Source of the DNA: Microcystaceae cyanobacterium
GTDB lineage: Bacteria > Cyanobacteriota > Cyanobacteriia > Cyanobacteriales > Microcystaceae
Length of the DNA: 63,518 nucleotides
Reading direction: 5' to 3'
NCBI GenBank assembly: GCA_040398185.1
Contig: JBBAUO010000021.1
Location: 1-63,518 of the forward strand
Both the position numbers and the translations under genes were made by a program. Position 1 is the first letter of the stretch. Each line of letters begins with the position of its first letter. Of this stretch, positions 11,496-51,821 are shown piece after piece. The notes beneath the pieces were generated by a model. The model searched no databases. It was not told the origin of the DNA and worked only from the letters and a program-made list of their open reading frames with translations.

Positions 11496-11557
11496 TTCAC
11501 CCTTGACAACCAAGTTCTTACTGGGTATATTTGTATTCAATTTAGTCATTATAATGG

Positions 11558-12106: not shown

Positions 12107-12512
12107 GACAATTATAAGTTTCCAAGCAACTCTTGAGGCTATTGGCATCAAAAATAATCGGTAAAAAATGAATGCTTTTTACTTCTTTAAAATAAAATAA
12201 AATCGGTATAGGATTCCAAAAAATCCGCCAATTTTCCCATTCTTCATAGGGAAAACTTCTGATCAAATTACCAGAACGATAGACTTCTAAATCCTTTGGG
12301 GTAAAGCGCAGACGAATAGTTACTGTTTGTAGTAGTAAAAAAAGTCCAAACACCGATAGAACCAATCCTAGGATCGGTTGCAACCACAAAAGGGGCAGGG
12401 AAATACCTACTAAAATTAAAGGTATCTTGTAACTAGGGGCGAGTTCAATAGTCGGTGAATTAGTCAGAGGTTGTAGAGAGGTCATGGATTTAGAGGATGA
12501 TATGGCGCTCAT
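12078..12512 (-). CDS. small membrane protein (DUF3119-like), co-oriented with the Crp-family gene
   Basis: 144 aa, two TM helices. Its start overlaps the stop of the upstream Crp gene by ~20 bp. Confidence 0.45.
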   Translation of the reverse strand: MSAISSSKSMTSLQPLTNSPTIELAPSYKIPLILVGISLPLLWLQPILGLVLSVFGLFLLLQTVTIRLRFTPKDLEVYRSGNLIRSFPYEEWENWRIFWNPIPILFYFKEVKSIHFLPIIFDANSLKSCLETYNCPSDRSVDLP

Positions 12513-13086
12513 TATCTATGGTAATTATATCCTGACGTTGGAACTCACCGAGTAAACGAGTCACAGTAACGCGGGTAGTACCGATCGCATTGGCAATATT
12601 TTGGTGGGTAAGACGAATGGAAATACGGGACCGCTCATCGGCGAAACTTTCTCCCATTTCTTGTTTGAGGAGCTTAAGGAGTTGTAGGAGACGATCTTCT
12701 ACCCGTCTTAAGCCAGCGATCGCCAGTATTGCCTCGGTTTGACGTATTCTTCTGGTAACTTGATTGAGCATTGTCTGAGTCAGTTGAGGAGAAGACTCAA
12801 TTTCAGTGAGATTATACCAACGTAAATAAATTTCCGATAGGGCCTTGGCTTGGTAGCCTTCCATGTAGGTTAACCATAAACCAAACACATAGCCCGGCTG
12901 CGCCCACCCCAAAAGAATCTCCTCCCCTGTACCCGAGACTTGGCTCAGTTGTGCAACACCTCGATAAACTTGCCAAACACCCCCCGCGACGAGGGGAATG
13001 GTTTCTCCTTTATCATAGTAATGGAGGCGACGACCTTCGATAACATCGTCTTTAAATAGGGGTTTAGCTTTTTCAGTTACCAGCAT
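12490..13086 (-). CDS. Crp/Fnr family transcriptional regulator
   Basis: cNMP-binding beta-roll followed by C-terminal HTH 'IANAIGTTRVTVTRLLGEF' (NtcA-like recognition helix, but not NtcA by length/N-terminus). Confidence 0.85.
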   Translation of the reverse strand: MLVTEKAKPLFKDDVIEGRRLHYYDKGETIPLVAGGVWQVYRGVAQLSQVSGTGEEILLGWAQPGYVFGLWLTYMEGYQAKALSEIYLRWYNLTEIESSPQLTQTMLNQVTRRIRQTEAILAIAGLRRVEDRLLQLLKLLKQEMGESFADERSRISIRLTHQNIANAIGTTRVTVTRLLGEFQRQDIITIDNERHIIL

Positions 13087-13237
13087 TGTCGGCGTGTTTT
13101 TTCCTGATTACGGATCTGATGGCCATCCTACACCCCGGAGGTAAAAATCAGGTAATGAAAAGATTAAGAGCAAAATTGCTAGATTTAATAGTGTTAATCG
13201 GGTAAAATTATCTGAATTATTTTGGCGACAAGAAAAG

Positions 13238-14296
13238 ATGCTGGATGCTTTGTCTCATCTCCCCCGTTGGTTAAAGGTAGCTCTGGTTTTCCCCCTAATT
13301 TTTCTCAACGCTTGGATACTATACCTTTTGGGTAGCTATTTTGAACCCCTAGTTAGTATTGTGGTAACAGCAAGTCTGCTGGCATTTTTGCTCGATTTTC
13401 CCATCAGGGGCTTACAAGACCGAAAAATTCCCCGTGTTTTAGCGATTACCTTAGTGCTAGGCAGTGCTTTACTGATTTTTGGTTTGTTAGTTTTTATTTT
13501 AGTACCCTTAATAGTGGAACAGTTAGGGGAATTAGTCAATAGTTTACCAAAATGGCTAGAGTCCGGAACTCAACAACTACAAAATTTAGAAAAATGGGCG
13601 ATCGCCCAGCAACTCCCCTTTGATATAAAAGATTCCCTAGCCGAAGTAACCACCAAGTTAACTAACCTCATCCAATCCCTTAGCAGTCGTCTATTGAACT
13701 TTATCCTAGGTACAATTGGTAGTTTAGCCAATGTGTTATTTGTTTTAGTTCTAACGGTTTTTTTGGTACTCTCAGGAGAGGAAGTCTGGGACGGAATTTT
13801 TAGCTGGCTTCCGGCTCCTTGGGACAATTATTTTCGGGATTCCATTCAAAATACCTTTGAAAACTACTTTGCCAGCCAAGCCATTTTAGCGGGAATTTTA
13901 AGCCTAGCCCAAACCTTTGTTTTCGGCATTCTCAATGTTCCCTACGCGGTTCTATTTGGTGTCACCATTGGCTTAACCACCCTAATACCCTACGCCAGTG
14001 CCTTAACGATTACCATCATTAGTGCTTTATTAATGCTGAAGGATTTTTGGCTCGGCTTAAAGGTATTGATAGCGGCGATTATTGTCGGACAAATTAATGA
14101 TAATGTGATTGCCCCTCGTTTAGTCGGCGGGATGATTGGACTTAACCCAGTTTGGATCATTCTCTCACTGCTAGTTGGCGGCAAACTCGCGGGGGTTTTA
14201 GGTTTATTAATTGCGATTCCCCTCGCAAGTGTCATCAAAAATGCTGCGGATACGTTGAGAACAAAATATACAACTAAGGTAGAGGAAGTAGCGTAA
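13238..14296 (+). CDS. AI-2E family transporter (PerM-like)
   Basis: 352 aa, 7-8 TM helices, conserved C-terminal 'GLLIAIPLASVIK' of the AI-2E/PerM family. Confidence 0.85.
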   Translation: MLDALSHLPRWLKVALVFPLIFLNAWILYLLGSYFEPLVSIVVTASLLAFLLDFPIRGLQDRKIPRVLAITLVLGSALLIFGLLVFILVPLIVEQLGELVNSLPKWLESGTQQLQNLEKWAIAQQLPFDIKDSLAEVTTKLTNLIQSLSSRLLNFILGTIGSLANVLFVLVLTVFLVLSGEEVWDGIFSWLPAPWDNYFRDSIQNTFENYFASQAILAGILSLAQTFVFGILNVPYAVLFGVTIGLTTLIPYASALTITIISALLMLKDFWLGLKVLIAAIIVGQINDNVIAPRLVGGMIGLNPVWIILSLLVGGKLAGVLGLLIAIPLASVIKNAADTLRTKYTTKVEEVA

Positions 14297-21365: not shown

Positions 21366-21413
21366 AATCTGTTCAAGGGGGCAGAGAAAAAACTAGCTTC
21401 TTCTCTGTTGCCC

Positions 21414-22814
21414 TTAATCTTTTAAATAGAAGTTCTCCGGGATAATCTGCATTTTTTCCCAATTCGTGAGGGTATTGTAAAACTCAAGGGCGATCGCTTG
21501 GTTAGCCTTGTCGCTCAGATGAATAGTCCCCGTGAAGGAATTTTTAGGAAGATTTGGGCCCGGTCCGTAGAAGTTTTTAACTTTAACCTGATTGGGATAG
21601 TTTTTAGCAATAGCAGAACCTTCTTGAATCAACTTTTTATAAGCCTTAGGCATTCTTTGTAAATAGTCTTTTTCCAACTGTTGCTGTAGGGCTTTTTCTT
21701 GGGGAGATAGCTGTTCAACCCGACGACCTGTAATCTCAGGTTGAAAAGCAATCACAACGGGAATATTCAATCTAGCACCTAGCTGAACTAGGGCTTTTTG
21801 CTGTTGTTTATAACGCTCAATGCGTCGTTTTAACTCGGCATCATCCTTCGGTAAAGACTGGGACAAAGAGCCATTTATCACGGTCATAGGTAGAGTCTGT
21901 TGGGCTAGACTTGGCTGAGGTTTAAAAGCCAAATAGTTGAAAGTTTTGACAATATAAGTATTATCAAACCAGTGAAATAAAGAGAGGTTAAATGCTGATT
22001 TGAAATGCTCTTGGGCATTAGCCAAGAAACCATCTATATGGGGAATATCTGCCTGTTCCTGTTGGCTGGATAACAACAAATCCGTATAGCCCCCTAGCAC
22101 AATAATCACATCCGGTTGATAGGGAAGTACCTTTAAAGCCAATTGAGAGAGATCATTACCCATGGTATAGCCAGGCACCCCCCCATTAATCACCCGATAT
22201 TCTCCTGGGTGAATTTTAGCGGGTAATGGTAATAACTTAGCTCGGTCGGGTTTAAAAAACGGAAAAACATCCGGGCGAAACTTCTCCGGAGAATTGACTT
22301 GGCTAGAAATGCGTTGTTGTAGGAGTTTTTCTAAGTGATGACTGATAGTTTCCTCATTTTTGGCTAATCCCTGACCAAAAACGGTGGAATTGCCGAGAAC
22401 AAAAACACGAATTTCATTTTTAGGCTTAACTAAACCTAGGGATTGACTATCCCTAAAACCCTGGGGATTGATGCCAATAAATTGATTTTTTTGGTTTTCA
22501 ACTAACTCATAGCCCACCGAGGAACTGCGTTTGACCTGTAAATCACCGTCTTGGGGGATTCCTTGAATAGCTTTTTCGTTTTGAGTGACAAATTTGAGGC
22601 GATAGGCATCATCTAGGGGAGAGTTGCCCTTTAAATCGCTGTTGGGACTCGTAATCCCCAGATACATCCGTGCCCCTAGCTCTAACAGTAAAATTAAGAC
22701 CGGAATAGATAAACCTAACCACCAGGCGGGAATTTTTTGATATTGTTTGGGTTTTCGGTAATAGGGACTCCTGTAGGATGAGTAGGTAGGACGACGACGG
22801 GGTAATTTTAGCAT
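21414..22814 (-). CDS. SGNH/GDSL-type hydrolase with N-terminal membrane anchor
   Basis: TM segment 'WWLGLSIPVLILLLEL', block I 'VFVLGNSTVFGQG' and later 'GGVPGYT' / 'IVLGGYTDL' SGNH blocks. Confidence 0.55.
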   Translation of the reverse strand: MLKLPRRRPTYSSYRSPYYRKPKQYQKIPAWWLGLSIPVLILLLELGARMYLGITSPNSDLKGNSPLDDAYRLKFVTQNEKAIQGIPQDGDLQVKRSSSVGYELVENQKNQFIGINPQGFRDSQSLGLVKPKNEIRVFVLGNSTVFGQGLAKNEETISHHLEKLLQQRISSQVNSPEKFRPDVFPFFKPDRAKLLPLPAKIHPGEYRVINGGVPGYTMGNDLSQLALKVLPYQPDVIIVLGGYTDLLLSSQQEQADIPHIDGFLANAQEHFKSAFNLSLFHWFDNTYIVKTFNYLAFKPQPSLAQQTLPMTVINGSLSQSLPKDDAELKRRIERYKQQQKALVQLGARLNIPVVIAFQPEITGRRVEQLSPQEKALQQQLEKDYLQRMPKAYKKLIQEGSAIAKNYPNQVKVKNFYGPGPNLPKNSFTGTIHLSDKANQAIALEFYNTLTNWEKMQIIPENFYLKD

Positions 22815-22966
22815 TTAGATATGTTCCTCAAATTAATCTGGGGTTCCATGGGCATAGAAACCGCAATAAGATAGGTGGTTTGGAAATCTCGACCGATCCC
22901 TTAGTTATGTTGACGTAAAATCTCGCTATAATTCTTCAATCCGAGAGAATTTTTTTTTGATCATCC

Positions 22967-23440
22967 ATGGCCTATAAAATATTGTTCGTTTGTCTAGGCA
23001 ATATTTGCCGCTCCCCAACGGCTGAGAACATCATGAATCATCTGATTGGGCAAGCTAACTTACATTCTGAGATTATCTGTGACTCGGCTGGCACATCTCG
23101 TTATCATATCGGTTCTGTACCCGATCGCCGAATGACATCAGCAGTCCTAAAACGGGGAATACCGATGAATGGTACAGCTAGACAGTTTAAAGCTACTGAT
23201 TTTCAACAATTCGACTTAATTTTGGCTATGGATCGCCAGAACTACCAAGATATTCTTGACCTCGATCCCCAGGGGCTCTATAAAGATAAAGTCCGCATGA
23301 TGTGCGACTACACTCGCCAATCTACTCTTAAGGAAGTACCTGATCCCTACTATGGCGGACAAGAAGGCTTTGAGCGGGTGATAGACCTTCTTCTCGATGC
23401 CTGTGGGGGTTTACTAGACGAGGTAAAAACCCAAGTTTAA
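22967..23440 (+). CDS. low-molecular-weight protein-tyrosine phosphatase
   Basis: 'VCLGNICRSP' P-loop and 'DPYY' motif. 157 aa. Confidence 0.9.
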   Translation: MAYKILFVCLGNICRSPTAENIMNHLIGQANLHSEIICDSAGTSRYHIGSVPDRRMTSAVLKRGIPMNGTARQFKATDFQQFDLILAMDRQNYQDILDLDPQGLYKDKVRMMCDYTRQSTLKEVPDPYYGGQEGFERVIDLLLDACGGLLDEVKTQV

Positions 23441-24747
23441 GGCTGCTCCATAAAGGTTCTCACCGTGCGATCGGGACTTAAAACTAGGCGAATTTCTGGA
23501 TTTTGTTGCAGAGATGGTTCTAGCTCCGAGACAAAAGGCTCTCCTAAGAGGGGCATAGCCGTCCGATCTAAATAGATTTTAGCCGCCTGACCTAGGGGGG
23601 TAACACGCTCAAGGGAGCCGTCCTTACTAAGGGTTAAACGATATTCTAGGGTTTGTTTTAAGCTTTCTGGGGGCTGCCACCGGGCTTGGAAATACTGCCG
23701 AACTTCCGCTACCTGGGGGATAGTATCCAACAAACTGGGTTGCGTTACCTTTGCCCGTTGATCAGCACTTGGTAGATTAGTCGTCTCAGACTTGGGCGCT
23801 TGTAAAGAGGGTAGTTTGGGCAGGGTAGGCAGAGGCGGGTTAAGGTTGACAGTCCCAGGGGTAAGCTCGGCTGGTGCCCTTGTTGTCCCACCCTGGGCAG
23901 GAACGGGGGGTAGAGGGGCAATCACTATGGCCGTTGGCGCAGGAGAAATCCCAGGGGGTGGGGGAAGTACGGGCGGGGGCGGCACAGTTATAGCAATATT
24001 CGGATTGCGAGCAGGACTGGGTAAGGGTTGAATCCCCCCAGGAGGTGGTAGGGGTTTGATGTCAGAAATTGTCGGGGGAAGCGTCGGGGAAGGTAGGGGA
24101 GCGGGGGGTAGGGGAACGGAGGGAATTTCTAAACTCTCGGGATTTATATTCCTAGGGACAGGTGGCAGGGTATTTTTAGCAATTCGAGCTAATTGGGTTT
24201 GTTGCCAATAACGAACGCCAAGGGGTAGCCCGAAGGCAAGGATCAACGCGGCGGCAGTTGCAGACCAAGTTAAAAGGGCTTTGCGGGGTAGGCTTTTGTC
24301 AAGTTTTGGTAGGACTGCTGATTCTTGGCTATATTCGTCTAGGGCGTTGGCTAAATCAAATAATTGGGTAATACTCAGGTTGAGGGTTTCTGGAGGGGTA
24401 CTCAGGGCTAGGGAGTCTAGGGATAATTGGTGTTGCGTTAGTTCTTGGATCGGGCTAGTCATATTTTCCCGAAACTGAAGTAAGTTCTGCGTATAATTGC
24501 TGACAACATCGCAGAGGCTTTGCAATTGATAGCTAGAGCCTTTAATTACTAGGGGTTCTCGTTCTGTTTGTCTGGGATCGTCTAGATATAACTGGAAACC
24601 CACGTCTTTTAGGAGATTCCGTCCTGCCCACAGGGATAAAGGCGATCGCTTTCCCCAAATTTCTAGGGTACAGGTTGGCGGGGTATAGCGGCGAATGAGG
24701 GCGTTAGTAGACAGCATAGGGTAATTTATGGGAGTAGGGCTAACCAC
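23437..24747 (-). CDS. DUF4335-like protein with long Pro-rich linker
   Basis: Conserved N-terminal domain ('YTPPTCTLEIWGKRSPLSLWAGR'), one TM, Pro-rich low-complexity stretch, conserved C-terminal domain. Confidence 0.45.
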   Translation of the reverse strand: MVSPTPINYPMLSTNALIRRYTPPTCTLEIWGKRSPLSLWAGRNLLKDVGFQLYLDDPRQTEREPLVIKGSSYQLQSLCDVVSNYTQNLLQFRENMTSPIQELTQHQLSLDSLALSTPPETLNLSITQLFDLANALDEYSQESAVLPKLDKSLPRKALLTWSATAAALILAFGLPLGVRYWQQTQLARIAKNTLPPVPRNINPESLEIPSVPLPPAPLPSPTLPPTISDIKPLPPPGGIQPLPSPARNPNIAITVPPPPVLPPPPGISPAPTAIVIAPLPPVPAQGGTTRAPAELTPGTVNLNPPLPTLPKLPSLQAPKSETTNLPSADQRAKVTQPSLLDTIPQVAEVRQYFQARWQPPESLKQTLEYRLTLSKDGSLERVTPLGQAAKIYLDRTAMPLLGEPFVSELEPSLQQNPEIRLVLSPDRTVRTFMEQP

Positions 24748-25310
24748 AACCGACGATGACCGTTGCGGCTACTGTAAAAAAGCAGATCGATCATCAGTTT
24801 AAAAGCAATCTCTGTCAGTTGACCAGAAGTGAGGCTTTCTCCCTGTTCAATTCGTTCTTGGTATAGCTGGCTAAAACTATCCAAATAATCCCCCAGTAGA
24901 GCAATGCGGTGGGGTGCTTGCCCCTGGTTGCCTACCTGCTCTAGTAGGGATACAGAACGCCGAATTAACTCCTGATTTTGACTCGCCAAATGGCAAATAA
25001 TCAAAACCAGCGATCGCGCTTCTTCTACATCTAGTTTCTTGCGTCCGCCTGAGCCTTTGCGTAAAGGGTTGGACTGTCTAAGCCGCCAGAGAGCCACCCG
25101 ATCAGCTACCATACCCTCTAAATTGAGGACTTGGGCTGCTTGTAGTATGGCTTCTGAGCCTATTTTAGCCAAGGCTTCCAGAGCCATCAAAAGCAGATCC
25201 AGATGGGTTTTAATATTGTCCAACTGTCCCTCATCCGGGGGGGACTCCAGGGGCAATTGTTGCCATTGACTGACAGGGGACGAGGTTTTGACCGTTGGGT
25301 ACATAGACAC
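24726..25310 (-). CDS. DUF3038-like conserved cyanobacterial protein
   Basis: 194 aa, helical. Its stop overlaps the start of the DUF4335-like gene by 22 bp, suggesting a translationally coupled pair. Confidence 0.45.
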   Translation of the reverse strand: MSMYPTVKTSSPVSQWQQLPLESPPDEGQLDNIKTHLDLLLMALEALAKIGSEAILQAAQVLNLEGMVADRVALWRLRQSNPLRKGSGGRKKLDVEEARSLVLIICHLASQNQELIRRSVSLLEQVGNQGQAPHRIALLGDYLDSFSQLYQERIEQGESLTSGQLTEIAFKLMIDLLFYSSRNGHRRLWLALLP

Positions 25311-25379
25311 TCAGGCGGGGATTCAACTATTCTAAACTGAGTCTATATTAGATCATGGTACTTTATCTGGAGCTATTAG

Positions 25380-26954
25380 ATGGGTTTTGAATCTGCCGCC
25401 GACGTAACCATTAAACAAAGTTTAGAACAATTTCTAGTCGTCCTTGCTGTTTCTTTGAGTGTCGCCACTGTTTCCCGTATTTTTAGCTGGTTACGTCAGA
25501 TTCCCTACACCTTACTCCTAGTTATCGTCGGCTTAGGGTTATCTTTTATTGATATTCGTCTGGTTAACCTCTCCCCGGAATTAATTCTCGAAATTTTTCT
25601 ACCCCCGCTTTTATTTGAAGCAGCCTGGAATACTCGCTGGCGGGATCTCAAAAGCTATTGGATACCTGTCACACTTTTTGCCATAGGTGGTGTGATTATT
25701 TCCATTGCCGGAGTCGCTTTTCCTTTGAGCTTTTTTACATCCTTACCCATCACCATCTCCCTCCTAGTTGGGGCTAGTCTTTCTTCTACAGATCCCATTG
25801 CTGTGGTCGCTCTTTTTAAGGATTTAGGTGCTAGTAAAAAACTCCTGACTTTAATGGAAGGTGAAAGTTTATTTAATGATGGTGTTGCCGTCGTTGCCTT
25901 TGTGGTATTAGTCGGCTTAACTATGGGGATGAAGGGCATTTCTGTTGCCAATACCGTCTCCTCGGTTCTGGCTTTTATTGGCATTGGTGCCGGGGTTGGT
26001 TTATTAATTGGCTTTGGTATTTCCTATCTTACCCAACGTTTAGATTTACCCCTAGTTGAGCAGTCTTTAACTTTAGTTTCTGCCTACGGAACCTATCTAA
26101 TAACCGAAGAGTTTGGCGGCTCAGGGGTTATTGGAGTCGTCACCCTAGGGATTATTTTAGGAAATTTTGGCTCTCGGATTGGCATGAATCCCCGTACCCG
26201 TTTATTGGTGTCTGAGTTTTGGGAGTTTCTAGCTTTCTTTGTTAATTCGATTGTTTTTTTGTTGATTGGCGATCAAATTCAAGTAATTAGTTTACTAGAT
26301 AATTTTAGACTAATTCTGATTGCTATTGCGGCGGTTATAGTTTCTCGATTGGTTACTATTTTTGGCTTGGGAGCGATTAGTAACCTAATTAGTGCTACTA
26401 AAATTGAAGGCAAAGAAGCCACGGTTTTGTGGTGGAGTGGATTAAGGGGCTCTGTTTCCATTGCTCTAGCTTTGAGTGTTCCCGAAACCCTACCTGGGAG
26501 ACAGTCAATTATTGAAACGGTTTTTGGTGTGGTTTTATTTACTTTATTAGTTCAGGGTTTAACCACCCAATGGCTTTTAGAAAAACTAGATTTAGTTGGG
26601 GATAATCCTATTCGTCAAACCTATTCGGAACTCCTAGCACGGCGAGTGGCTTTAAAGCGAGTTTTGGACTATATTGAAAAGCTAGATAAATCCCCTGATA
26701 TTGACGGAGAATTTTATATATATGAGCAGAAATTAGTTGAGGAACAATTGAAAATTATAGAGGAAAAGATTCGAGAATGTAATGCCAAATATCCGCAATT
26801 GCAGTTTTTAATGATGGAACAATTCCGAGAAACCTTGTTAGATATTGAAGCAGACACCTACGCTGAGTTTATCAGGTCAGGGCGCTTGAATAGTAATCTT
26901 TCTACTGTTTTACAAGATATTTTAGTGGATTCCCAAGAAAAAGTAGAATACTAA
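25380..26954 (+). CDS. Na+/H+ antiporter, CPA1 (NhaP-type) family
   Basis: ~11 TM helices with 'LSSTDPIAV' and 'ESLFNDG' CPA1 motifs plus a cytoplasmic C-terminal regulatory tail. Confidence 0.85.
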   Translation: MGFESAADVTIKQSLEQFLVVLAVSLSVATVSRIFSWLRQIPYTLLLVIVGLGLSFIDIRLVNLSPELILEIFLPPLLFEAAWNTRWRDLKSYWIPVTLFAIGGVIISIAGVAFPLSFFTSLPITISLLVGASLSSTDPIAVVALFKDLGASKKLLTLMEGESLFNDGVAVVAFVVLVGLTMGMKGISVANTVSSVLAFIGIGAGVGLLIGFGISYLTQRLDLPLVEQSLTLVSAYGTYLITEEFGGSGVIGVVTLGIILGNFGSRIGMNPRTRLLVSEFWEFLAFFVNSIVFLLIGDQIQVISLLDNFRLILIAIAAVIVSRLVTIFGLGAISNLISATKIEGKEATVLWWSGLRGSVSIALALSVPETLPGRQSIIETVFGVVLFTLLVQGLTTQWLLEKLDLVGDNPIRQTYSELLARRVALKRVLDYIEKLDKSPDIDGEFYIYEQKLVEEQLKIIEEKIRECNAKYPQLQFLMMEQFRETLLDIEADTYAEFIRSGRLNSNLSTVLQDILVDSQEKVEY

Positions 26955-26955
26955 T

Positions 26956-27744
26956 CTAAGCTCCCATGCCTGAATAATGTTGTAATCCCTTACGCCAGAG
27001 CCAACGATTCAGAAAATAAAAGATCATTCCCCAGGCAATTATAATTAAAAATCCCTTGCCTACAGCAACGGGGAAACCCACCAATAATGCTGCGGGAAAG
27101 TAAACAAGATAGGGTAAAGGAGTCCAAAGAATAAACTCTCTTACCCCTGGGGGGAAAACCGTCAAGGGCGCAATGATTCCCGATAAAAACACATAGAATA
27201 AAAACCAAAAACTTTCAATGGCATTAGCTCTTTCTGTCCAAAAAGCTAACATGGCAAAGGTATATTGAATAATAAAACGCAGAGCAAAAGCCATAACTAT
27301 AGCTACTATACCTAAAACTAAGTTTTGGAAGTTAGGAATCCAAAAAGCTTCGGGATAGAGACAGAAAAAAATCAAAATAAAGCCTAACATAAATGGAAAT
27401 CTGGTTACTTTTTCAGCTATATGACTACTAATATGATGCCAAACTGGATCTAGGGGTTGTAGTAGGTGGAAAGATAGTTTTCCTTCTGTGATTTCTTTTT
27501 CAAACTCCCAAATTACCCAAACAATAGTAAATTGACGTACCAGAAAAACTGCAAAAAAATAGCGAGCAAATTCTGTAGAAGTCAGAGCAAAATTACCACT
27601 TTGTGCTGCTTTTATCCAAACACCCATTAAAATAATTGGCAGGGAACCAGCAAGAGCCCAAAGAAAGATTTCAGCCCGGTACTCTAACATATTGGCATAG
27701 TAGGTAACGAAGAAAGCTCTTGCTTTTTTGTAAATTCCGTACAT
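26956..27744 (-). CDS. ABC-2 family transporter permease
   Basis: 262 aa, six TM helices in ABC-2 arrangement. AT-rich codon usage. Confidence 0.6.
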   Translation of the reverse strand: MYGIYKKARAFFVTYYANMLEYRAEIFLWALAGSLPIILMGVWIKAAQSGNFALTSTEFARYFFAVFLVRQFTIVWVIWEFEKEITEGKLSFHLLQPLDPVWHHISSHIAEKVTRFPFMLGFILIFFCLYPEAFWIPNFQNLVLGIVAIVMAFALRFIIQYTFAMLAFWTERANAIESFWFLFYVFLSGIIAPLTVFPPGVREFILWTPLPYLVYFPAALLVGFPVAVGKGFLIIIAWGMIFYFLNRWLWRKGLQHYSGMGA

Positions 27745-27805
27745 TAGACCTCTCGCATAAGTTAAATATCAACAGCTGTGGCTTTTACAGTTAAATTAAT
27801 CGTCA

Positions 27806-28168
27806 TTAGGCACAAATCACGTCAGCTTCTTCAGCTTGTTCTGTCAACACCATATCTACCGCTTGTCGGAAGGTAGCATCGGAGTAGTAGCGTTTAGCAT
27901 TTTCAATCACTACCTTGAGTACCTGCATCCCAACGGGGTTAAGGTTGGAGATGGATAAAAGACGGTTTAGTGCCTTGGGTTGAATATCCCGCAGTAGTTG
28001 CCCAATAGCAAAGTTGAAAAAGGTCGAAATACAGACTTTCACCCCAGTAAAATCCAGTTCTACGGGGATATTGTCTACTAACTGAGGATGAATGAGGTCA
28101 TAGATTTTTTGCCCCTCGTCGGGAGTCATGCAGTTTTCACCGATGATAGTGTGAATCTTGTATCCCAT
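27806..28168 (-). CDS. STAS-like domain protein (DUF4325)
   Basis: 120-aa soluble ORF preceded by GGAGGA SD. STAS-like alpha/beta pattern. No partner ATPase/kinase nearby, so it is an orphan. Confidence 0.45.
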   Translation of the reverse strand: MGYKIHTIIGENCMTPDEGQKIYDLIHPQLVDNIPVELDFTGVKVCISTFFNFAIGQLLRDIQPKALNRLLSISNLNPVGMQVLKVVIENAKRYYSDATFRQAVDMVLTEQAEEADVICA

Positions 28169-28396
28169 GTTCTTTATCCTCCTTTTAGGATGTTGTTTGG
28201 CAAACGGAGTGCGGAAGTAACGCTGTGTGTACAGTTAGAATTATGTAATTATATTATCACAACTTAAGCAGAGGACTTATTCGCCAAAGGCTTTAGTCAT
28301 ATCAAACTCATAACAATCCTAGGGATTAATCTGTTCAGAAAGAGCCGAAAATAGAGGAGGAAATCTACTTTATTAACAACTGAAGCTATCTAATTA

Positions 28397-28620
28397 ATTA
28401 GGAAGCATCTTCGGTATAAGCTTATATGTTGCTTCATTTTGTTCTTGAGCTTCCTGCAAATCGTATTGAGCTTGTAAATTGAGCCAGAATTGAGCACTGT
28501 ACATCAGTCTGATAAGCGGTAATCAAAAAACCATCTCCATTTAGGCGGCGAGCAACGGCAACCGCCCATCGTCTTTCCTTGAGGACGAGGTAAAAAAGCA
28601 ATACATTAGGGTCGCAGCTA
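28397..28620 (-). pseudogene. HigA-family (XRE-type) antitoxin remnant
   Basis: Minus-strand translation gives '...RRLNGDGFLITAYQTDVQ[C]SAQFWLNLQAQYDLQEAQEQ...*'. The C-terminal 'SAEFWLNLQ.NYDL' signature of HigA antidotes is intact. The HTH part is shortened, with in-frame stops further upstream. No recognisable higB. Confidence 0.35.
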
Positions 28621-28627
28621 CTGCGAC
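28611..28627. repeat. perfect 7-bp stem hairpin GTCGCAG-cta-CTGCGAC
   Basis: Seen directly, at the upstream edge of the higA-like remnant. Could be a terminator/REP-like element. Confidence 0.4.
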
Positions 28628-28998
28628 TTAGTGTAAGCTATTGGGAGATTTACCCTAACGTTAGAGCTCCTGAGCCACGCCATTTTTAACAATGGCATTA
28701 ACAAATTTACAACAACATCCCCAATTCATGCAACACCAAGAACCTCAGTTTCTCATAAAACTGGCGAGGTTCAAATTGAGGTAACACTTTGGTGAAAAAA
28801 TCCCCTTCATCCAGAACATTCGTCCTAAGTAATTGGACTGATGAAGGAAACCCGCAACCGGTTGCAAAAAAGAAAATGGGTCACTTGGGAGTAATATCTC
28901 AGTCTGGTGACACGAACCCGATATTTACACCTTGTTGATATCCCTCCCAAATAGTGCTACATTAAAGTTCTTGCTAAATAAGTCTAGGTAGGATAATC

Positions 28999-29313
28999 AT
29001 GAATACCAAAGTTTTGGGGATAAGTGTTTTTGTTACGACGATTTTAGCCCCACAAGTTGCTATAGCGGGCCCTATTTTAGTGCATCAATTTGAGAGAACT
29101 CCATATGGACCTCTGATATGCGCTGACAGGGCTGTTAATATACTTGGCAATATCGGTGCAACTAAAATATCAAATATAGCACCTGGTTTCTTCATCGCAC
29201 GTCTTCAAAATGCCTCAATCGAGATTATTTGTAGAGGTGGAGAAGTATTAGTTATTGTGGCTGGGCCTCCTTATGCTGAAGCAATTTTAAGAGATTTAAT
29301 TAGGGTATTCTAA
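28999..29313 (+). CDS. small secreted protein of unknown function
   Basis: 104 aa. N-terminal signal peptide 'MNTKVLGISVFVTTILAPQVAIAG|P', two Cys. Located in an AT-rich patch. Confidence 0.5.
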   Translation: MNTKVLGISVFVTTILAPQVAIAGPILVHQFERTPYGPLICADRAVNILGNIGATKISNIAPGFFIARLQNASIEIICRGGEVLVIVAGPPYAEAILRDLIRVF

Positions 29314-29349
29314 ATTGGGATATGTAAAGTCTTATAAAAGTATAAAACA

Positions 29350-29580
29350 ATGACACGGATTCCCTTAACAGAAGCTCAACTCCGTTTACCCGAATTGATT
29401 GCCAGTCTGCAACCCGGTGAAGAAGTGCAGATTTTTTCCGGCGATCGCACTGTCGCCAGACTGATTAGCGAACTCCAACCACCCCGGAAGCCTCGCCAGC
29501 CTGGTAGCGCAATTGGAACCCTAACCATCCTCTCCGAAGACGAAATCCACTTGGAAGCCTTACCAACCTCACTGGTGTAG
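29350..29580 (+). CDS. Phd/YefM-VapB-type antitoxin (orphan)
   Basis: 76 aa. 'IPLTEAQLRLPELIASLQPGEEVQIF..DRTVARLI' N-domain and C-terminal 'RQPGSAIGTLTILSEDEIHLEAL' match the cyanobacterial Phd-like antitoxin family that normally precedes a PIN/VapC toxin. No toxin follows here. Confidence 0.6.
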   Translation: MTRIPLTEAQLRLPELIASLQPGEEVQIFSGDRTVARLISELQPPRKPRQPGSAIGTLTILSEDEIHLEALPTSLV

Positions 29581-29628
29581 TCTGAAAGTCTGATAATCCC
29601 ACTTTCCCACTTGACTCTATAAATCAAA

Positions 29629-29943
29629 GTGGGAGATAATAGCAATATGGATCAAGAACAGATAGAACAACAAACTAAAAACGTAGACTCTAAGGGACGG
29701 ATTGCCCTTGGTCGGGAATTCGCCAACCGGACTGCTATCGTCCAATACCAGGGAGATGGAGAGATCCTGATCAGACTCGCCAGGGTCATTCCCGAGAAGG
29801 AAGCTTGGCTGTACCAGAATGAGCGGGCGCTCGCTTTAGTGCGACAGGGACTCAATGAAGCGCAACGCAACGAATTCAGCACCACCCCGCCTAATCTCCA
29901 GGAATCGTTCTCCTTTGCCGAGCAGATTCCCGATGAGGAGTAA
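29629..29943 (+). CDS. AbrB/MazE/SpoVT-type antitoxin
   Basis: 'DSKGRIALGREFANRTAIVQ' swapped-hairpin motif. Its stop TAA abuts the ATG of the next gene. Confidence 0.6.
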   Translation: MGDNSNMDQEQIEQQTKNVDSKGRIALGREFANRTAIVQYQGDGEILIRLARVIPEKEAWLYQNERALALVRQGLNEAQRNEFSTTPPNLQESFSFAEQIPDEE

Positions 29944-30294
29944 ATGGGTTTCAAAGTAGTGTGGACTAAAGCTGCTGACGGAACATTTCGTCAGATCGAG
30001 GCTGATGCACGGACAGCTTTTGAGAGTCGCTTGCGGCTCAAGAAGGAAAAAGTCTCAAAGCAGGAGGGGCTGTTTAAACAAGTCAGAAAAGCGATTGAAC
30101 TTCTCCTGGAGAATCCGCGTCATCCTGGACTTCATACCCACGAATACGACTCTATCCCTCATCCCTTTGTCAAAGATGGCAAGGTCTTTGAAGCGTATGC
30201 CCAAAATCGCACACCCGGTGCGTACCGGATTTTCTGGTGTTACGGACCGGAGAAGGAACAGATTACCATCATTGCCATTACTCCCCACCCCTGA
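29944..30294 (+). CDS. RelE/ParE-superfamily toxin
   Basis: 116 aa. 'FKVVWTKAA...', 'KAIELLLENPRHPG', C-terminal 'AYRIFWCYGPEKEQITIIAITPHP' follows the RelE/ParE fold pattern (YRI.Y ... I.I..I..H). Tight coupling to the upstream AbrB-type gene. Confidence 0.55.
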   Translation: MGFKVVWTKAADGTFRQIEADARTAFESRLRLKKEKVSKQEGLFKQVRKAIELLLENPRHPGLHTHEYDSIPHPFVKDGKVFEAYAQNRTPGAYRIFWCYGPEKEQITIIAITPHP

Positions 30295-30327
30295 GGCTTC
30301 CTATGTCCACAGTTGAATGGGATAATG

Positions 30328-30891
30328 CTAATTAACGTCACACCCTCTGCGATCAATATAGGGGTGATAAAAGGTTAACGCCGTATTTCCATAAACTTTG
30401 GTACGGGAAACCACCAAAGGATCAATAGTCACCGGTTGCCATTGTTTGCTCTTGTGCTCCACGGCGATTTCTCCCCCTGGGGCTAAAAGTTGATAACCGG
30501 CGATCGCCTCTAAAACGGGTTGATACAACGGACTTTCGTAGGGTGGATCAAAATAAATATAATCAAAGGATTGACCCGATAAAGTCGCCAACTCAGTTAA
30601 AACATTCCCGCGCAGGATACGGAAACTCTGGTCAGGGAGGGCTATTTTTTGCCAATTTTCTCGAATAATATCACAGGCTCGCCCTGATTGCTCAATTCCC
30701 ACCACCGATTTAGCACCCCGACATAAAGCTTCGGCTCCCATCGAGCCATTTCCTGCACATAAATCTAACCAGCTACACCCTAAAATATTAGCTTGCCAAA
30801 TATTAAACAATGCCTCTCTTACCCTAGCAGTAGTGGGGCGAGTCAAGGGGCCTGGCAAAGTTTTTAGGGGACGATTTCCATAAATTCTCAT
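30328..30891 (-). CDS. rsmD: 16S rRNA (guanine966-N2)-methyltransferase RsmD
   Basis: 'LDLCAGNGSMGAEALCRGA' SAM motif and 'DPPY' motif. 187 aa. Confidence 0.85.
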   Translation of the reverse strand: MRIYGNRPLKTLPGPLTRPTTARVREALFNIWQANILGCSWLDLCAGNGSMGAEALCRGAKSVVGIEQSGRACDIIRENWQKIALPDQSFRILRGNVLTELATLSGQSFDYIYFDPPYESPLYQPVLEAIAGYQLLAPGGEIAVEHKSKQWQPVTIDPLVVSRTKVYGNTALTFYHPYIDRRGCDVN

Positions 30892-31815
30892 TTAATGTTT
30901 AGGAAATAAGGTTTCTGATTGATAATCGGGAGGTTCTACATGAATCAGCACTCGTACAGGGCGAAATTTCTCATCTAAGTGGGCTTCAATGGTTTCGGTA
31001 ATTTTATGGGCTGATTCTACATCTTGAACATCAACAGTCAAGTGCATTTCAATAAAAACCTGTCGTCCGACAACTCCCCGAGAGGCAATGTCATGACAAT
31101 TAATTACCCCTGGTACTTGCATAACTATCTGGGAAATAGTTTCCGGTGGGATAGCCATTTCATCCACAAGCCAAGGAACATTTTCCTTTAGTACCATCCA
31201 ACCACTCCGCAGCACCATCAGGGCAACGGGGAAGGCTAAAATGGTATCTAACCATTGAAGTTGGGGAAGTTTCTCGATATTTCCCCACCAAATGCCCACC
31301 AAGCCTACTAAAACCGTAATCGTCACCCAGATATCACTCATGGTATGGTAAGCATCGGCGATCAGGATTGGACTGTTAAGTTTTTGTCCCATCCATCTCT
31401 CGTAGTAGGCGACGAAAATATTGATCCCCAAGACTAATAATATTACCCATAACTCAGGGCCTGCAACCTCGACCGATTTCCCTCCTTGTAAGAGTCGCGT
31501 GACGGCACTTTGGAGAATTTCAAAACAAGCTAAGAGTAAAAACGCCGCAATCCCTAAAGCAGCAACCCCTTCAAATTTTTGATGTCCGTAGGGATGATCC
31601 CGATCTGGGGTAGGATCGGAAAGACGGTTAGCCACTAAACCAACTACATTGTTCGCGCTGTCGGTGACGCTGTGGAGGGCATCGGCTTGTAAACTTAAAG
31701 AACCAATTTGTACGCCGACAATAGCTTTAAGGGCCATGACAACAAGATTCAACGCCAGGGTAATCAGCAGGACTTTTTTTACTTGGGATTGACGAGTTGG
31801 TATCATGGAAGTCAC
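30892..31815 (-). CDS. cation diffusion facilitator family transporter
   Basis: Six TM helices with 'HSVTDSANNVVGL' and 'AYHTMSDIW' His/Asp metal sites plus C-terminal cytoplasmic domain. Confidence 0.9.
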   Translation of the reverse strand: MTSMIPTRQSQVKKVLLITLALNLVVMALKAIVGVQIGSLSLQADALHSVTDSANNVVGLVANRLSDPTPDRDHPYGHQKFEGVAALGIAAFLLLACFEILQSAVTRLLQGGKSVEVAGPELWVILLVLGINIFVAYYERWMGQKLNSPILIADAYHTMSDIWVTITVLVGLVGIWWGNIEKLPQLQWLDTILAFPVALMVLRSGWMVLKENVPWLVDEMAIPPETISQIVMQVPGVINCHDIASRGVVGRQVFIEMHLTVDVQDVESAHKITETIEAHLDEKFRPVRVLIHVEPPDYQSETLFPKH

Positions 31816-31928
31816 TGGGGCTAGAATTGCCGATCTTCCTATATTCTAAGGTAACTAAAGTTTCCTAGGTCAATAAAGACACAAAAGCGTAGGATTATAA
31901 TATATAACTAAGCCCTCAAGGTCAATCA

Positions 31929-32645
31929 ATGATGAGTAAGCCTCTTTATCAAGAAAAACAACAGAAATTAGCAGAATTAATGCAAAATGCGGGGATTCAT
32001 ACCCTAGATGAACTCAGCGATCGCTCCGGGGTGTCTGCATGGCAACTGGCCAGGGTACAGCATGGACTTCTGAACAAAATGCCGACAGAAATTCTCCTGA
32101 AACTCTCCCAAGCCCTAGGGGTGTCTCCCAACGATATCCTGGGACAATTGCTACCTGAGGCAAATTTAGAGCCAAAAATCAGCCAAAAAGCCCAAATATA
32201 CTCGTCAGAGCCAGAGAATGAATCCCTAGAGGAGAGATTAGGTAAGGATCGGCAAATTATCGAGCAGGAATTTCAGCAATCTAGTCTCGAAGTCATTGAA
32301 TCTTGGATGTTACAATGGCCTACTGCTGTCGCCCTAGCCAAGAAAAACCCCGAACTATCTGCCGCAAAACTACTAACTTTGGTTAAACCCGTTATGGATT
32401 TGCTAAAACGATGGGGTGTTGAACCTCTTTGTCAGGTAGGGGAGCAAATTGCCTACGATCCTATGTACCATGAACTGATGGAAGGAGAAGCCAGCGTCGG
32501 GGACATAGTTTCGGTGCGCTATATTGGCTATACCCAAGGCTCTAAACTGCTCTATCGTGCTAAGGTTAGTGCCCTTCAATCCCCGGAAACTCCCGTCGTT
32601 GAAGAAGAGGCAAAAACCGATTTTTCCACTATTATCTACGGTTGA
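31929..32645 (+). CDS. HTH (XRE-like) domain fused to GrpE-like C-terminal domain
   Basis: N-terminus 'LDELSDRSGVSAWQLARVQHGLLNKMPTEILLKLSQALGVSPNDI' is an XRE-type HTH. C-terminus 'WGVEPLCQVGEQIAYDPMYHELMEGEASVGDIVSVRYIGYTQGSKLLYRAKVSA' matches the GrpE beta-domain pattern. Stop codon TGA overlaps the IS right-end 'TTGA'. Confidence 0.5.
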   Translation: MMSKPLYQEKQQKLAELMQNAGIHTLDELSDRSGVSAWQLARVQHGLLNKMPTEILLKLSQALGVSPNDILGQLLPEANLEPKISQKAQIYSSEPENESLEERLGKDRQIIEQEFQQSSLEVIESWMLQWPTAVALAKKNPELSAAKLLTLVKPVMDLLKRWGVEPLCQVGEQIAYDPMYHELMEGEASVGDIVSVRYIGYTQGSKLLYRAKVSALQSPETPVVEEEAKTDFSTIIYG

Positions 32646-32656
32646 CTCTCCCACGC

Positions 32657-33976
32657 CTAAAGGCATGGGATTCTTTCGGACAAGAATTTAGACTTAGGCA
32701 TTGCCCAAAGTTTGATTCTGCTTACGGTGGTCAAACACCGTCTACCCAGTCTACTTAAATCAATGTCTAAGTTTCTGGCTACCTTACGCAAAATATTCGC
32801 GGAACCGTTTAAATCTGAGTTGATAAAACTTCCAGCACTCGTTTTATACAAGCCCCTCTTTATTCTTTGTCCTGATGCTTTCCACCCTTGGGGCTTTTGG
32901 CCATATTCGGGTAGGGAGTCTTCATCAAGATAGGAAGCGCAAGAGGTATTAGCTTCTTCAGTTTGGACAAAACGAATATTATAGATAGAACACAATTGCT
33001 CAAGACGTACTTTCAGTTTTGCTAAAGGTATTTGAACGAATTGCTGATTATTCTTATCTCCCATGTTGACACCATCTTTGATGCCCTTATTCCACCCAAC
33101 TACGATTGTCCCAATCTCATATTTAAGGCAATGATTAATGACTATTCGCGCGGCTTTATTCACCATGTCACGCATCTGATGATTACGCTTTCTGGTAATT
33201 CCATCTAAAACCCTGTCCCAATAATCTTTAGGTTTACCTTCTTTACGTTGAGCAACTCGTTTGTTGTAAAGTTGATTCATCGCTTTGGCTTGACGAGAAT
33301 CAACTAAAAAGGAATTTCCCAAGGTATCAACACAAGCCATTAGATTTGCTGAAGTTCCTAAATCAATAGATAGAGCTTGTTCTGGAGCTAATTGAGGAGC
33401 TTCAACTTTCTCGATTTCATAGGCTAGAACCAAGTAAAATGCCCCATTTTTAGGCAGAATTGTCAATTCTTTGACCTTATCGAATTGAAGGTTAGCAGGG
33501 CAAGGCAGAAAGAACTCTTTAACACCAAACCAACGGCCTACCTGTAATCCTAGGGGAAATCTAATCATTCCTTCTCGGTAGGTCGGTTTACCAGCACCTG
33601 TATTCGGAAATGAGATTTTAAATAATCCACCTGATTTCCTATAGCTCGGTGGTAATGGTTTTTGCTCTAATTCTCCTTTTAAAAACAATTGGCGCAGTTC
33701 CCTGAAAGACTTAAACGCCTCGGAGACACTTAACAAAGTTTGTTGGGCGGTCACTGATGGTAAAGCCTGGGCATGAATATTTTTACCCACTTCATAGATT
33801 GGGTCATATTTGGAAATAATCCGATTGGTTTTGAAGAAGATTTGCCGCGCCCAATAGACTCCGCAGTTGTATAAACTATTTGATTGTTCCGTTAAGTAGG
33901 TCAGAATAGCTAGAGTCTCAGCATCACAATGAATCTGGTTTTGCTGAACTCCCATTAGACGACTTGCTTTTGTCAT
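32657..33976 (-). CDS. tnpB: RNA-guided endonuclease TnpB (IS605 OrfB family)
   Basis: OrfB_IS605 N-domain, RuvC-like motifs ('SIDLG', 'TSCASY' zinc finger 'C..C'), C-terminal 'SDLNGSANI'. Start set at ATG 33976 (MTKASRL), because the upstream extension in the ORF track is probably non-coding. Confidence 0.85.
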   Translation of the reverse strand: MTKASRLMGVQQNQIHCDAETLAILTYLTEQSNSLYNCGVYWARQIFFKTNRIISKYDPIYEVGKNIHAQALPSVTAQQTLLSVSEAFKSFRELRQLFLKGELEQKPLPPSYRKSGGLFKISFPNTGAGKPTYREGMIRFPLGLQVGRWFGVKEFFLPCPANLQFDKVKELTILPKNGAFYLVLAYEIEKVEAPQLAPEQALSIDLGTSANLMACVDTLGNSFLVDSRQAKAMNQLYNKRVAQRKEGKPKDYWDRVLDGITRKRNHQMRDMVNKAARIVINHCLKYEIGTIVVGWNKGIKDGVNMGDKNNQQFVQIPLAKLKVRLEQLCSIYNIRFVQTEEANTSCASYLDEDSLPEYGQKPQGWKASGQRIKRGLYKTSAGSFINSDLNGSANILRKVARNLDIDLSRLGRRCLTTVSRIKLWAMPKSKFLSERIPCL

Positions 33977-34031
33977 AGATTTTCCTCCTCTATCTATGTT
34001 ATCATATCTATAGATTTTAGCAATAGGTGGC

Positions 34032-34430
34032 ATGGGACAAAATTACTGGCACGAAAATACATCAGTCAGCCTCATCAACTATCACTTCGTTTGGATAGTC
34101 AGAAAACGGAAGAGAATACTATACGGGGAGATGGATGCTAGGGTTCAACAGCTAATTAGAGAAGCGGTTATTGCCTTAGAATGTGAAGTTATAGCCTTGG
34201 AAACAGATCAAGATCATGTTCATCTGTTCATACAATCTAAGCCAATCTATTCCCCTGCCCAAATCATGCACAATATTAAAGGCTCAGTTTCTCATCAAAT
34301 CAGGATTGAGTTCCCTTGGGTAAAAGAAAAGTTATCAAGTTTGTGGACGCGAAGCTATTTCTGTGGGACTACTGGAAGTGTTTCAGGAGATACTGTTAAG
34401 AGGTATATTGAAGCACAAAAAATTAAATAG
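34032..34430 (+). CDS. tnpA: IS200/IS605 family Y1 transposase TnpA
   Basis: 'NYHFVW', HuH motif 'DHVHLFI', catalytic Tyr region 'WTRSYFCGTTG'. 132 aa. Confidence 0.85.
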   Translation: MGQNYWHENTSVSLINYHFVWIVRKRKRILYGEMDARVQQLIREAVIALECEVIALETDQDHVHLFIQSKPIYSPAQIMHNIKGSVSHQIRIEFPWVKEKLSSLWTRSYFCGTTGSVSGDTVKRYIEAQKIK

Positions 34431-34479
34431 TTTGTTCGCTTTGCTCACCGCCTTATATCCCACGCTTAAAAGCATGGGT

Positions 34480-34703
34480 TTTACGGCGGTTTCTATAAAA
34501 TCGTACTGCTGTCTGGGAACATCATCTAAGGTTGCGGGAGTGGGATCAAAAAAGGTATTTCCGACCCAATCTCGCCCACCGACAAAAATCACTAGATCAT
34601 CTATTTCTGGCTCATAGGTAAATTCCGCCCTCGGCCTGTCTGGCCGCCCTTCCCTGGACTTTTGATGGGTCAAAAAAGCCGTTTTGATCAAATCTATAGT
34701 CAA
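34480..34703 (-). other. short ORF abutting/entering the IS left end (possibly a 3'-truncated gene)
   Basis: Reading frame from ATG 34703 runs straight into the IS hairpin. About the first 75 aa lie outside the IS and have no recognisable family. Confidence 0.3.
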
Positions 34704-36454: not shown

Positions 36455-36611
36455 AGCCTCCACGATAATATATTTACCTAAGCAGATTTGGTATTATGTG
36501 GTTAATCACCCGCCTTTTGAGTATGGACAAGCAAGCTCAATAGACCTCTCCAGAAATCAGGCTGGAAGCCTGAACTACCAAGACAAAATCTTAAATGTGG
36601 TCGATGTCTAA

Positions 36612-51799: not shown

Positions 51800-51821
51800 T
51801 ATTAATTATGATAATAGGACA

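Follow-up and report, generated by a model that had tools for sequence, protein, structure and literature searches.

Pairs of an AbrB-type antitoxin and a RelE-type toxin were catalogued in 2009, when 27 such toxin-antitoxin (TA) pairs were counted; the combination was under-represented, although its distribution was even (PMC2701414). PrlF-YhaV of Escherichia coli is the prototype that has been characterised (PMC7781912), and slr0724/slr0725 of Synechocystis PCC 6803 is annotated as MazE(AbrB)/YhaV (PMC4963859). Here, we analyse a 63,518-nucleotide (nt) stretch of DNA from a freshwater Microcystaceae cyanobacterium (contig JBBAUO010000021.1; in the following the window), which contains an islet of TA genes between a DUF4325/STAS-like gene and rsmD. 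A preliminary description, made from the sequence alone, had reported one intact, one orphan and one decayed TA module in this islet, and all three are found where it had placed them (Table 1). We consider it likely that the islet is strain-variable and was built and eroded stepwise, and that the cassette which survives in it looks like an active type II TA system, whose toxin likely is an A-site mRNA endonuclease.

The intact pair resembles PrlF-YhaV in several respects. The antitoxin gene precedes the toxin gene, the toxin has a RelE/ParE fold, and the promoter holds a palindromic operator, here a candidate one (PMC7781912, PMC4963859). The antitoxin combines a beta-rich N-terminal DNA-binding domain (predicted here) with an acidic C-terminal tail, and among the prototypes tested the toxin family profile matches YhaV best. 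On the other hand, the window toxin lacks the Toxin_YhaV match that marks Pfam membership, PrlF does not align with the window antitoxin, and YhaV has 154 amino acids (aa) compared to the 116 aa of the window toxin, which ends in an invariant ...ITPHP. Furthermore, neither the CCCAC operator nor the leaderless design described below is derived from PrlF-YhaV.

The differences to the canonical systems are larger. With regard to YefM-YoeB and RelB-RelE, the window toxin shows 10-14% identity and no hidden Markov model (HMM) or profile match, it has an insertion of ~20 residues between helix 2 and strand 2 as well as a longer basic helical hairpin, and its antitoxin is neither of the Phd/YefM nor of the RelB type. 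With regard to ParD-ParE, the conserved His/Arg/Tyr/His set of the toxin is not expected in ParE, and the antitoxin is no ribbon-helix-helix ParD. The ordinary families HigB-HigA and Phd(VapB)-PIN(VapC) are represented by the two decayed neighbours of the cassette, of which the window has only fragments, i.e., the 3' end of higA, the 5' end of higB and a Phd gene without C-terminus or toxin. That is, the AbrB-RelE pairing, which the preliminary description had called less common than RelB-RelE and ParD-ParE, is indeed under-represented but already known from PrlF-YhaV and slr0724/slr0725, and as such it is not new. New is an abundant, conserved family outside the Pfam, NCBIfam and PADLOC models that has no studied member; a full-text literature search for the peptide motifs of the family found no paper.

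The antitoxin-toxin cassette

The structure model of the toxin (predicted local distance difference test, pLDDT, of 93) has a beta-alpha-alpha-beta-beta-beta topology, i.e., the RelE/ParE (microbial RNase-like) fold. The protein carries every residue that is conserved in its family (H60, H66, E83, Y85, R95, Y100, H115). Among 71 diverse members, H66 is conserved in 93%, Y85 in 97% and R95 in 99%, with Y100 within 93-99%. H115 is the penultimate residue of the family end ...ITPHP; it was pre-selected in the 71-member set, and its invariance refers to alignment A1. Established active-site residues are R61 in RelE, E46, R65, H83 and Y84 in YoeB, and H87 in YafQ. The Y-R-x-F of the window toxin in strand beta3 and its C-terminal His recall these active sites. 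Given this resemblance, a ribosome-dependent mRNA endonuclease is favoured over a gyrase poison and is, by analogy, the most likely function.

We also compared the toxin family profile with individual prototypes. YhaV, whose sequence was verified against NC_000913, gives the best value, i.e., an hhalign score of 24.6 compared to a mean of 11.8 (standard deviation 2.5, maximum 19.3) for shuffled sequences. This is ~5 standard deviations above the shuffles, with E 0.0014, a probability of 18% and 61 aligned columns. The respective comparison with RK2 ParE is insignificant.

The family is large, with at least 5,103 relatives at E <=0.001 (90% identity clusters). At 50% identity the clusters number 560, and a shorter branch of ~98 aa is among them. 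Among the 120 relatives listed, lengths range from 111 to 126 aa and are mostly exactly 116 aa, identities are mostly 62-68%, and the hosts are Cyanobacteriota, Phycisphaerales and Bacteriovoracaceae. Overall, the family ranges over cyanobacteria, planctomycetes, Bdellovibrio-like bacteria, actinomycetes and lactobacilli, with a partner of 94-99 aa. Sub-threshold matches to PF05016 or Gp49 appear in 5/10 remote relatives. All relatives on RefSeq plasmids (12/12) are labelled 'hypothetical protein', as is the exact window toxin in an NCBI metagenome-assembled genome, while the COG-based pipeline of JGI labels its cluster mates 'RelE'. The earlier suggestion of a distinct subfamily is therefore supported, i.e., neither protein of the pair matches a curated family and the toxin family is huge.

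The conserved start of the antitoxin is the ATG at 29647 and not the GTG at 29629, and its stop TAA immediately precedes the ATG of the toxin. The window thus has a two-gene operon with a small, coupled antitoxin gene; in the loci L001, L002 and L005 the two genes overlap by TGATG or TAATG. An antitoxin homologue (28-72% identical) is located immediately 5' of the toxin in 78/78 metagenomic loci with room for it, and also in L001, L002 and L005. The protein is predicted to consist of a beta-rich N-terminal domain with a VDSKGRIxLG motif and a helical, acidic C-terminal half; in the pLDDT 46 model, residues 18-21, 28-35 and 39-44 are predicted as strands, after which come two helices and an acidic tail. 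Within the invariant N-terminal motif K-N-V-D-S-K-G-R-I-x-L-G, the window's NVDSKGRIALG aligns with NLDSKGRLSVP of MraZ (hhalign E 0.002) and VDELGRVVIP of AbrB. This MraZ motif aside, hhalign comparisons of the antitoxin profile with AbrB, MazE, VapB, PrlF, RelB and YefM are insignificant. Scans of 15 and 67 family members yield single matches to MazE_antitoxin, PrlF_antitoxin (1/67, E 0.17) and MraZ amid small beta-barrel families, all at noise level, and the window antitoxin itself matches the MraZ model of NCBIfam at E 0.11 only. The preliminary description had reported an AbrB/SpoVT antitoxin that abuts the toxin gene. The TAA/ATG junction is as described, while the AbrB/SpoVT label finds no PF04014 or other AbrB-clan match of weight; it is plausible but unproven.

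Upstream of the antitoxin, we observe a candidate operator and a sigma-70-like promoter, TTGACT-N18-GATAAT, which agrees with the consensus in 10/12 positions. The operator is composed of TCCCACTTT, CCCACTTGAC and the inverted AAAGTGGGA. The -35 box TTGACT falls within CCCACTTGAC, and the -10 box GATAAT ends 6 nt ahead of the antitoxin ATG. To put these elements into the context of the family, we used the 70-nt upstream regions of 63 distinct family loci (genome guanine-cytosine (GC) content 0.41-0.70). They contain on average 2.54 CCCAC/GTGGG pentamers, compared to 0.12 in control windows, and three or more copies are present in 37/63 loci vs. 0.1% of the controls. This enrichment points to a conserved operator that would be read by the antitoxin. 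A -10-like hexamer ending 4-9 nt before the ATG is found in 26/63 loci (6.9% of random positions), with a spacing of exactly 6 nt in 20/63. Shine-Dalgarno-like sites are present in 24/63 loci and overlap with the -10-like class only twice. The sequences thus point to two alternative 5' architectures in the family, and the window is predicted to belong to the leaderless one. In M. tuberculosis, TA transcripts without a leader are common. They are also known in Synechocystis (PMC4963859).

Promoter, operator and both genes form a cassette of 728 bp that is 94.8% identical at the nucleotide level to L048-L050, with sharp limits at both sides. There, it is located between abiEi/abiEii and a phage-type integrase, and the contexts of the family as a whole include integrases, abiE genes, other TA pairs and plasmids. 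Since the nearly identical copy has abrupt ends and lies in another context, the cassette is a self-contained, horizontally mobile unit that has changed context. A repeat search gave no convincing terminal repeats around the cassette or around the 707-bp segment discussed below.

Members of the shorter toxin branch are found on plasmids beside tyrosine recombinases, i.e., on the Crinalium plasmid pCRI9333.02 (L145 1429-2270) and on a Lactobacillus helsingborgensis plasmid (L146 1692-2306). Their upstream partners (184 aa and 79 aa) are unrelated, unannotated and without Pfam match, which indicates that the toxin family has swapped antitoxins. Two relatives further show signs of toxin inactivation. 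In L052, which shares 97.4% identity with the window, the frame of the toxin (762-1136) shifts beyond residue 102, so that strand beta4 and His115 are missing; an assembly error could be the cause. P0126 is an in-frame fusion of the antitoxin with the five final toxin codons (...ITPHP), with nearly all of the toxin gene deleted.

Taken together, the cassette would work as follows. The toxin would enter the ribosomal A site and cleave mRNA via His66, Tyr85, Arg95 and the C-terminal His115. The antitoxin would dimerise via its beta-rich AbrB/MraZ-like N-terminal domain, bind the CCCACTT/AAGTGGG repeats, which overlap with the -35 box and directly adjoin the -10 box, and so repress its own operon, with its helical acidic C-terminal half wrapping and neutralising the toxin. 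Translation of both proteins would be coupled by the TAA followed by ATG, and the antitoxin transcript is predicted to be leaderless from the -10 box ending 6 nt before the ATG.

Build-up and decay of the islet

Contigs of sister strains were obtained by exact-protein look-ups in metagenomes, and breakpoints were determined by BLASTN against the window. Four of these contigs (L054-L057) show 97-98% nucleotide identity to the window and the gene order NhaP, ABC2, DUF4325, HigA, HigB, Phd, antitoxin, toxin, RsmD. Relative to them, the window has breakpoints at 28500/28540, 28627/29335 and 32641/34495 (Table 1). The window-type allele is common as well, i.e., L061-L064 are 99.2-100% identical across the entire islet, and both alleles co-occur in lake metagenome samples of the same series (GROS21-1). 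These breakpoints, together with the cassette homology, bear out the proposal that TA modules were successively inserted and decayed in the interval from the DUF4325/STAS-like gene to rsmD.

The Phd-like protein belongs to a cyanobacterial family of mostly 76 aa, named Phd/YefM by NCBI, whose members are 87-93% identical to it across residues 1-71. Its PF02604 match is sub-threshold (E 0.022, 15 bits vs. a cut-off of 29.8), and it has no adjacent cognate toxin. Intact homologues end in ...HLEDFxDYMP, the C-terminal toxin-binding end, and L058 and L060 (Scytonema hofmannii), the two intact examples, each have a PIN-domain gene of 128 aa with a 4-nt overlap at the stop. In contrast, the proteins of the window and of all sister strains diverge past ...HLEA into LPTSLV (window) or LPTSRV. 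The divergence from the family consensus at residue 71 coincides with the end of nucleotide homology to L058 (29561), and ~15 nt (29562-29576) between this point and the cassette start match neither. Furthermore, in-frame deletions within the gene differ by strain (5 codons in L054-type contigs, 7 and 3 codons in L052). Neither a toxin gene after the Phd-like frame nor any PIN homologue within the 63.5-kb window was found, so that the description as a Phd/VapB-like antitoxin without downstream toxin stands, i.e., PIN partner and C-terminal motif are gone. It is a truncated orphan gene on which constraint is relaxed. Its 3' half also contains three imperfect direct 17-nt copies (GGAAGCCTCGCCAGCCT, GGAACCCTAACCATCCT, GGAAGCCTTACCAACCT; 29486-29569), of which the third (GGAAGCCTTACCAACCT) straddles the end of homology to intact Phd genes. 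They may be related to the event that formed the junction, or be due to chance.

The decayed module is a higBA pair. In L054-L057 the pair is intact on the minus strand, in L054 with a PF05015 toxin (HigB, 100 aa, 4.6e-17) followed by an HTH_3 antitoxin (HigA, 99 aa, PF01381, 2.9e-8), while the window holds fragments of both only. The frame at 28394-28504 matches the final 19 positions of the TIGR02607 HigA model (62-80 of 81, E 5.9e-5). The higA remnant and residues 66-99 of the 99-aa HigA of L054 share 94% identity, and nucleotide homology within higA stops at 28500. A 39-bp filler stands where L054 has 481 bp, which contain the 5' two thirds of higA, the spacer and the larger part of higB. 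What survives of higB are its first 10 codons at 28540-28569 (90% in a tblastn of HigB residues 1-10). Thus, the reported C-terminal signature of higA is present, while its upstream region is not disrupted by stops but deleted, as the L054 alignment reveals. The decay of higBA is a real deletion polymorphism and not a series of stop codons, since the window-type allele is common and co-occurs with the intact one. A frame at 28434-28601 (-) superficially resembles a small-toxin C-terminus; it crosses the filler junction and was taken as a chance open reading frame (ORF).

Next to the higB remnant, an allele-specific segment of 707 bp stands in place of 294 bp of the sister allele. It shows no homology to L054-L057 and is found at 99.2-100% identity in L061-L064. 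Its 104-aa ORF, found in window-type alleles only, has a signal-peptide-like N-terminus (MNTKVLGISVFVTTILAPQVAIAG). It has no Pfam, NCBIfam or PADLOC match, is a singleton cluster at 90% identity, and gives no tblastn match against plasmids. A perfect hairpin with a 7-bp stem (GTCGCAG-CTA-CTGCGAC, 28606-28627) is kept in both alleles, and the left breakpoint of the replacement is the exact end of this hairpin. This hairpin may act as a terminator or be prone to recombination.

From these observations, we propose a history of three steps. Initially, a module of a Phd/YefM-type antitoxin and a PIN (VapC) toxin would have occupied the site, as suggested by the intact relatives. The 728-bp cassette then replaced the PIN gene and the last Phd codons, as the breakpoints given above show, leaving an orphan Phd antitoxin that now decays, with in-frame deletions that differ by strain. 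In the third step, which the breakpoints show as well, the neighbouring higB-higA pair, intact in the co-occurring allele, lost 481 bp in the window allele, and the 707-bp segment with its orphan ORF took the place of the adjacent 294 bp.

Flanking DNA and base composition

The coordinates of all features are summarised in Table 1.

Table 1. Features of the islet and its surroundings in the window, with the respective region of sister contig L054 where aligned.
Feature	Window	Strand	L054	Basis or remark
Homologous block	21372-28500		1991-9122	homologous
DUF4325/STAS-like gene	27806-28168	-		Pfam 5e-17; one flank of islet
ORF, 36 codons, HigA-like end	28394-28504	-		ORF list
higA remnant, last 34 codons and stop (HTH_3 antitoxin)	28394-28500	-		TIGR02607; L054 HigA
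Filler, 39 bp	28501-28539	.	9123-9603 (481 bp)	replaced; BLASTN breakpoints vs. L054-L057 and junction sequences
higB 5' remnant and upstream region	28540-28627	-	9604-9691	homologous, 94.3% identical
Allele-specific segment, 707 bp	28628-29334	.	9692-9985 (294 bp)	replaced; BLASTN
ORF, 104 aa	28999-29313	+		ORF list
Homologous block	29335-32641		9986-13277	homologous
Orphan Phd/YefM-like (VapB-type) antitoxin gene, 76 aa	29350-29580	+		ORF list; homologues, NCBI naming
Antitoxin-toxin cassette, 728 bp (promoter/operator and two genes)	29577-30304	+		homology to L048-L050
Candidate operator	29597-29634	+		9-bp inverted repeat; CCCAC/GTGGG enrichment
Operator part TCCCACTTT	29597-29605			
Operator part CCCACTTGAC	29606-29615			
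Operator part AAAGTGGGA, inverted	29626-29634			
Sigma-70-like promoter (predicted)	29611-29640	+		consensus matches
Antitoxin, 98 aa	29647-29943	+		ORF list; conserved upstream of toxin; alignments A2, A5
Toxin, RelE/ParE superfamily fold, 116 aa	29944-30294	+		ORF list; structure model; family-conserved residues
rsmD, 187-aa product	30328-30891	-		TIGR00095 1e-53; other flank of islet
TnpB (OrfB_IS605)	32657-34033	-		within IS200/IS605-family element
Y1 transposase TnpA	34032-34430	+		within IS200/IS605-family element

Base composition had been put forward as a further hint at successive TA insertion and decay, i.e., the region from 28.2 to 29.3 kb was described as AT-rich and free of HIP1 sites (GCGATCGC), with one such site in the Phd gene. 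Both statements are true (zero sites, GC 0.35-0.44; the site in Phd at 29441-29448 encodes the conserved G-D-R), while their evidential value is nil. The window has 24 HIP1 sites, compared to 0.26 expected by chance, and because this is only about one per 2.6 kb, a free stretch of 1.1 kb is unremarkable. The actual gap extends from 25017 to 29441 and covers conserved core genes, among them an ABC-2 membrane gene (26.5-27.7 kb, GC 0.34-0.39) that is as AT-rich as the islet. HIP1 and AT content were thus rejected as markers of foreign DNA, with density and GC inside the local range, and composition neither dates nor sources the islet DNA. Farther downstream, the last 16.4 kb (47067-63518) are free of HIP1 sites, compared to about one per 2 kb before, and GC is 0.32-0.39 from 48 kb onward vs. 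~0.44 elsewhere in the window. This part may be a horizontally acquired island.

Downstream of the islet, an element of the IS200/IS605 family (32642-34494) is missing from L054, where its flanks are contiguous. It is an insertion polymorphism directly downstream of an HTH_26 gene. A further window-specific stretch relative to L054 comprises 68 bp (36542-36609). Within rsmD, the product is truncated to 137 aa in L056 (10964-11377) and L063 (1818-2231), either by a frameshift polymorphism or by an assembly error; single frameshifts in such metagenomic contigs are to be treated with caution. A scan of genome contigs for RsmD gave 42 loci, the best ~70% identical (Microcystaceae), none of which has a neighbour in common with the window. 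An Rfam scan of 28100-30400 gave no match.

Alternative explanations and meaning of the family

A number of results weigh against our interpretation of the cassette as a TA system with an mRNA endonuclease in a stepwise built islet. The RelE/ParE-like label of the preliminary description holds by fold but not by curated families. That is, up to E 1 the toxin finds no match in Pfam or NCBIfam, including PF05016, PF06769, PF15738, PF11663, PF05015 and PF05973, and none among the PADLOC models, a PDB sequence search gives no match at E up to 10, and hhalign comparisons of its profile with E. coli RelE, YoeB and YafQ are insignificant and yield no residue-by-residue match of the conserved His/Arg/Tyr set to the known active sites. 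The antitoxin has no curated match in Pfam, NCBIfam or PADLOC and no sequence match in the PDB, where profile searches with 15 and 67 members are negative as well. AbrB-clan matches among the 67 members stay at noise level (MazE_antitoxin once, at E 0.021). The AlphaFold2 monomer of the antitoxin is unreliable (pLDDT 46), and its Foldseek result was meaningless and discarded. Promoter and operator are derived from consensus and enrichment only, and the 707-bp and 294-bp replacement events cannot be polarised as to their order.

One may thus ask whether the toxin is of the ParE type and poisons DNA gyrase, which would leave antitoxin and autoregulation unchanged. We consider this unlikely. The family-wide conservation of His66, Tyr85 and Arg95 (93-99%) and the invariance of His115 in A1 yield a set akin to the acid-base and phosphate-binding residues of YoeB, YafQ and HigB, and ParE toxins are not known to have such a set. 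In addition, the Y-R-x-F/Y in strand beta3 matches RelE (GYRLVY) and YoeB (HRLVY), the prototype that matches best, YhaV, is an RNase, and PF05016, to which remote relatives show sub-threshold similarity, includes RelE-like members too. More fundamentally, the pair might be no TA system at all, i.e., the RelE/ParE-fold protein could be a non-toxic co-repressor or domesticated regulator acting with a small transcription factor. The cross-phylum conservation of the toxin (60-68% identity), unusually high for a TA toxin, its constant length of 116 aa and the many chromosomal copies would fit such a role. Nevertheless, we hold it to be very improbable in view of the strict two-gene architecture with abutting or overlapping stop and start, the patchy contexts with integrases, abiE genes, other TA pairs and plasmids, the 94.8%-identical cassette in two unrelated contexts, the catalytic look of the family-conserved residues, and the inactivated toxin copies (the possible frameshift in L052, if no assembly error, and the in-frame deletion fusion in P0126).

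For the Phd-like gene, retention by selection is conceivable, either as an antitoxin or regulator acting in trans on a distant PIN toxin or as a second regulator of the cassette. Its frame remains open in all alleles, the first 70 residues share 87-93% identity with intact homologues, and it lies on the same strand 66 nt upstream of the cassette genes. However, the toxin-binding motif DFxDYMP is lost, three distinct in-frame deletions (5, 7 and 3 codons) separate close strains, and a PIN homologue is missing from the 63.5-kb window. Also, the cassette has its own predicted promoter/operator and occurs without Phd in other contexts. We therefore regard retention as quite unlikely, compared to a decaying orphan.

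With regard to its meaning, the islet itself is a case of ordinary TA accretion and decay, and a clean natural one, in which chromosomal TA modules accumulate, displace each other and decay, with the 'before' and 'after' alleles coexisting in the same lake populations. The cassette family could reach further. We deem it doubtful, albeit worth stating, that it represents a new, very widespread type II TA family that differs from the RelE, YoeB, YhaV and ParE prototypes by its own target or cleavage mode, by an antitoxin whose DNA-binding domain is no classical AbrB domain and reads CCCAC repeats, and by leaderless translation of the antitoxin as part of the control circuit. If true, such a target or cleavage mode would explain the conservation of the toxin across phyla, including its basic helical hairpin and the ...ITPHP end. 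Since neither Pfam nor NCBIfam nor PADLOC has a model and RefSeq annotates 'hypothetical', thousands of family copies escape standard surveys of TA systems and defence islands. Predicted for the family are a RelE/ParE-fold toxin with a defined set of residues that are candidates for catalysis, an operator with conserved CCCAC repeats, and an antitoxin mRNA without leader.

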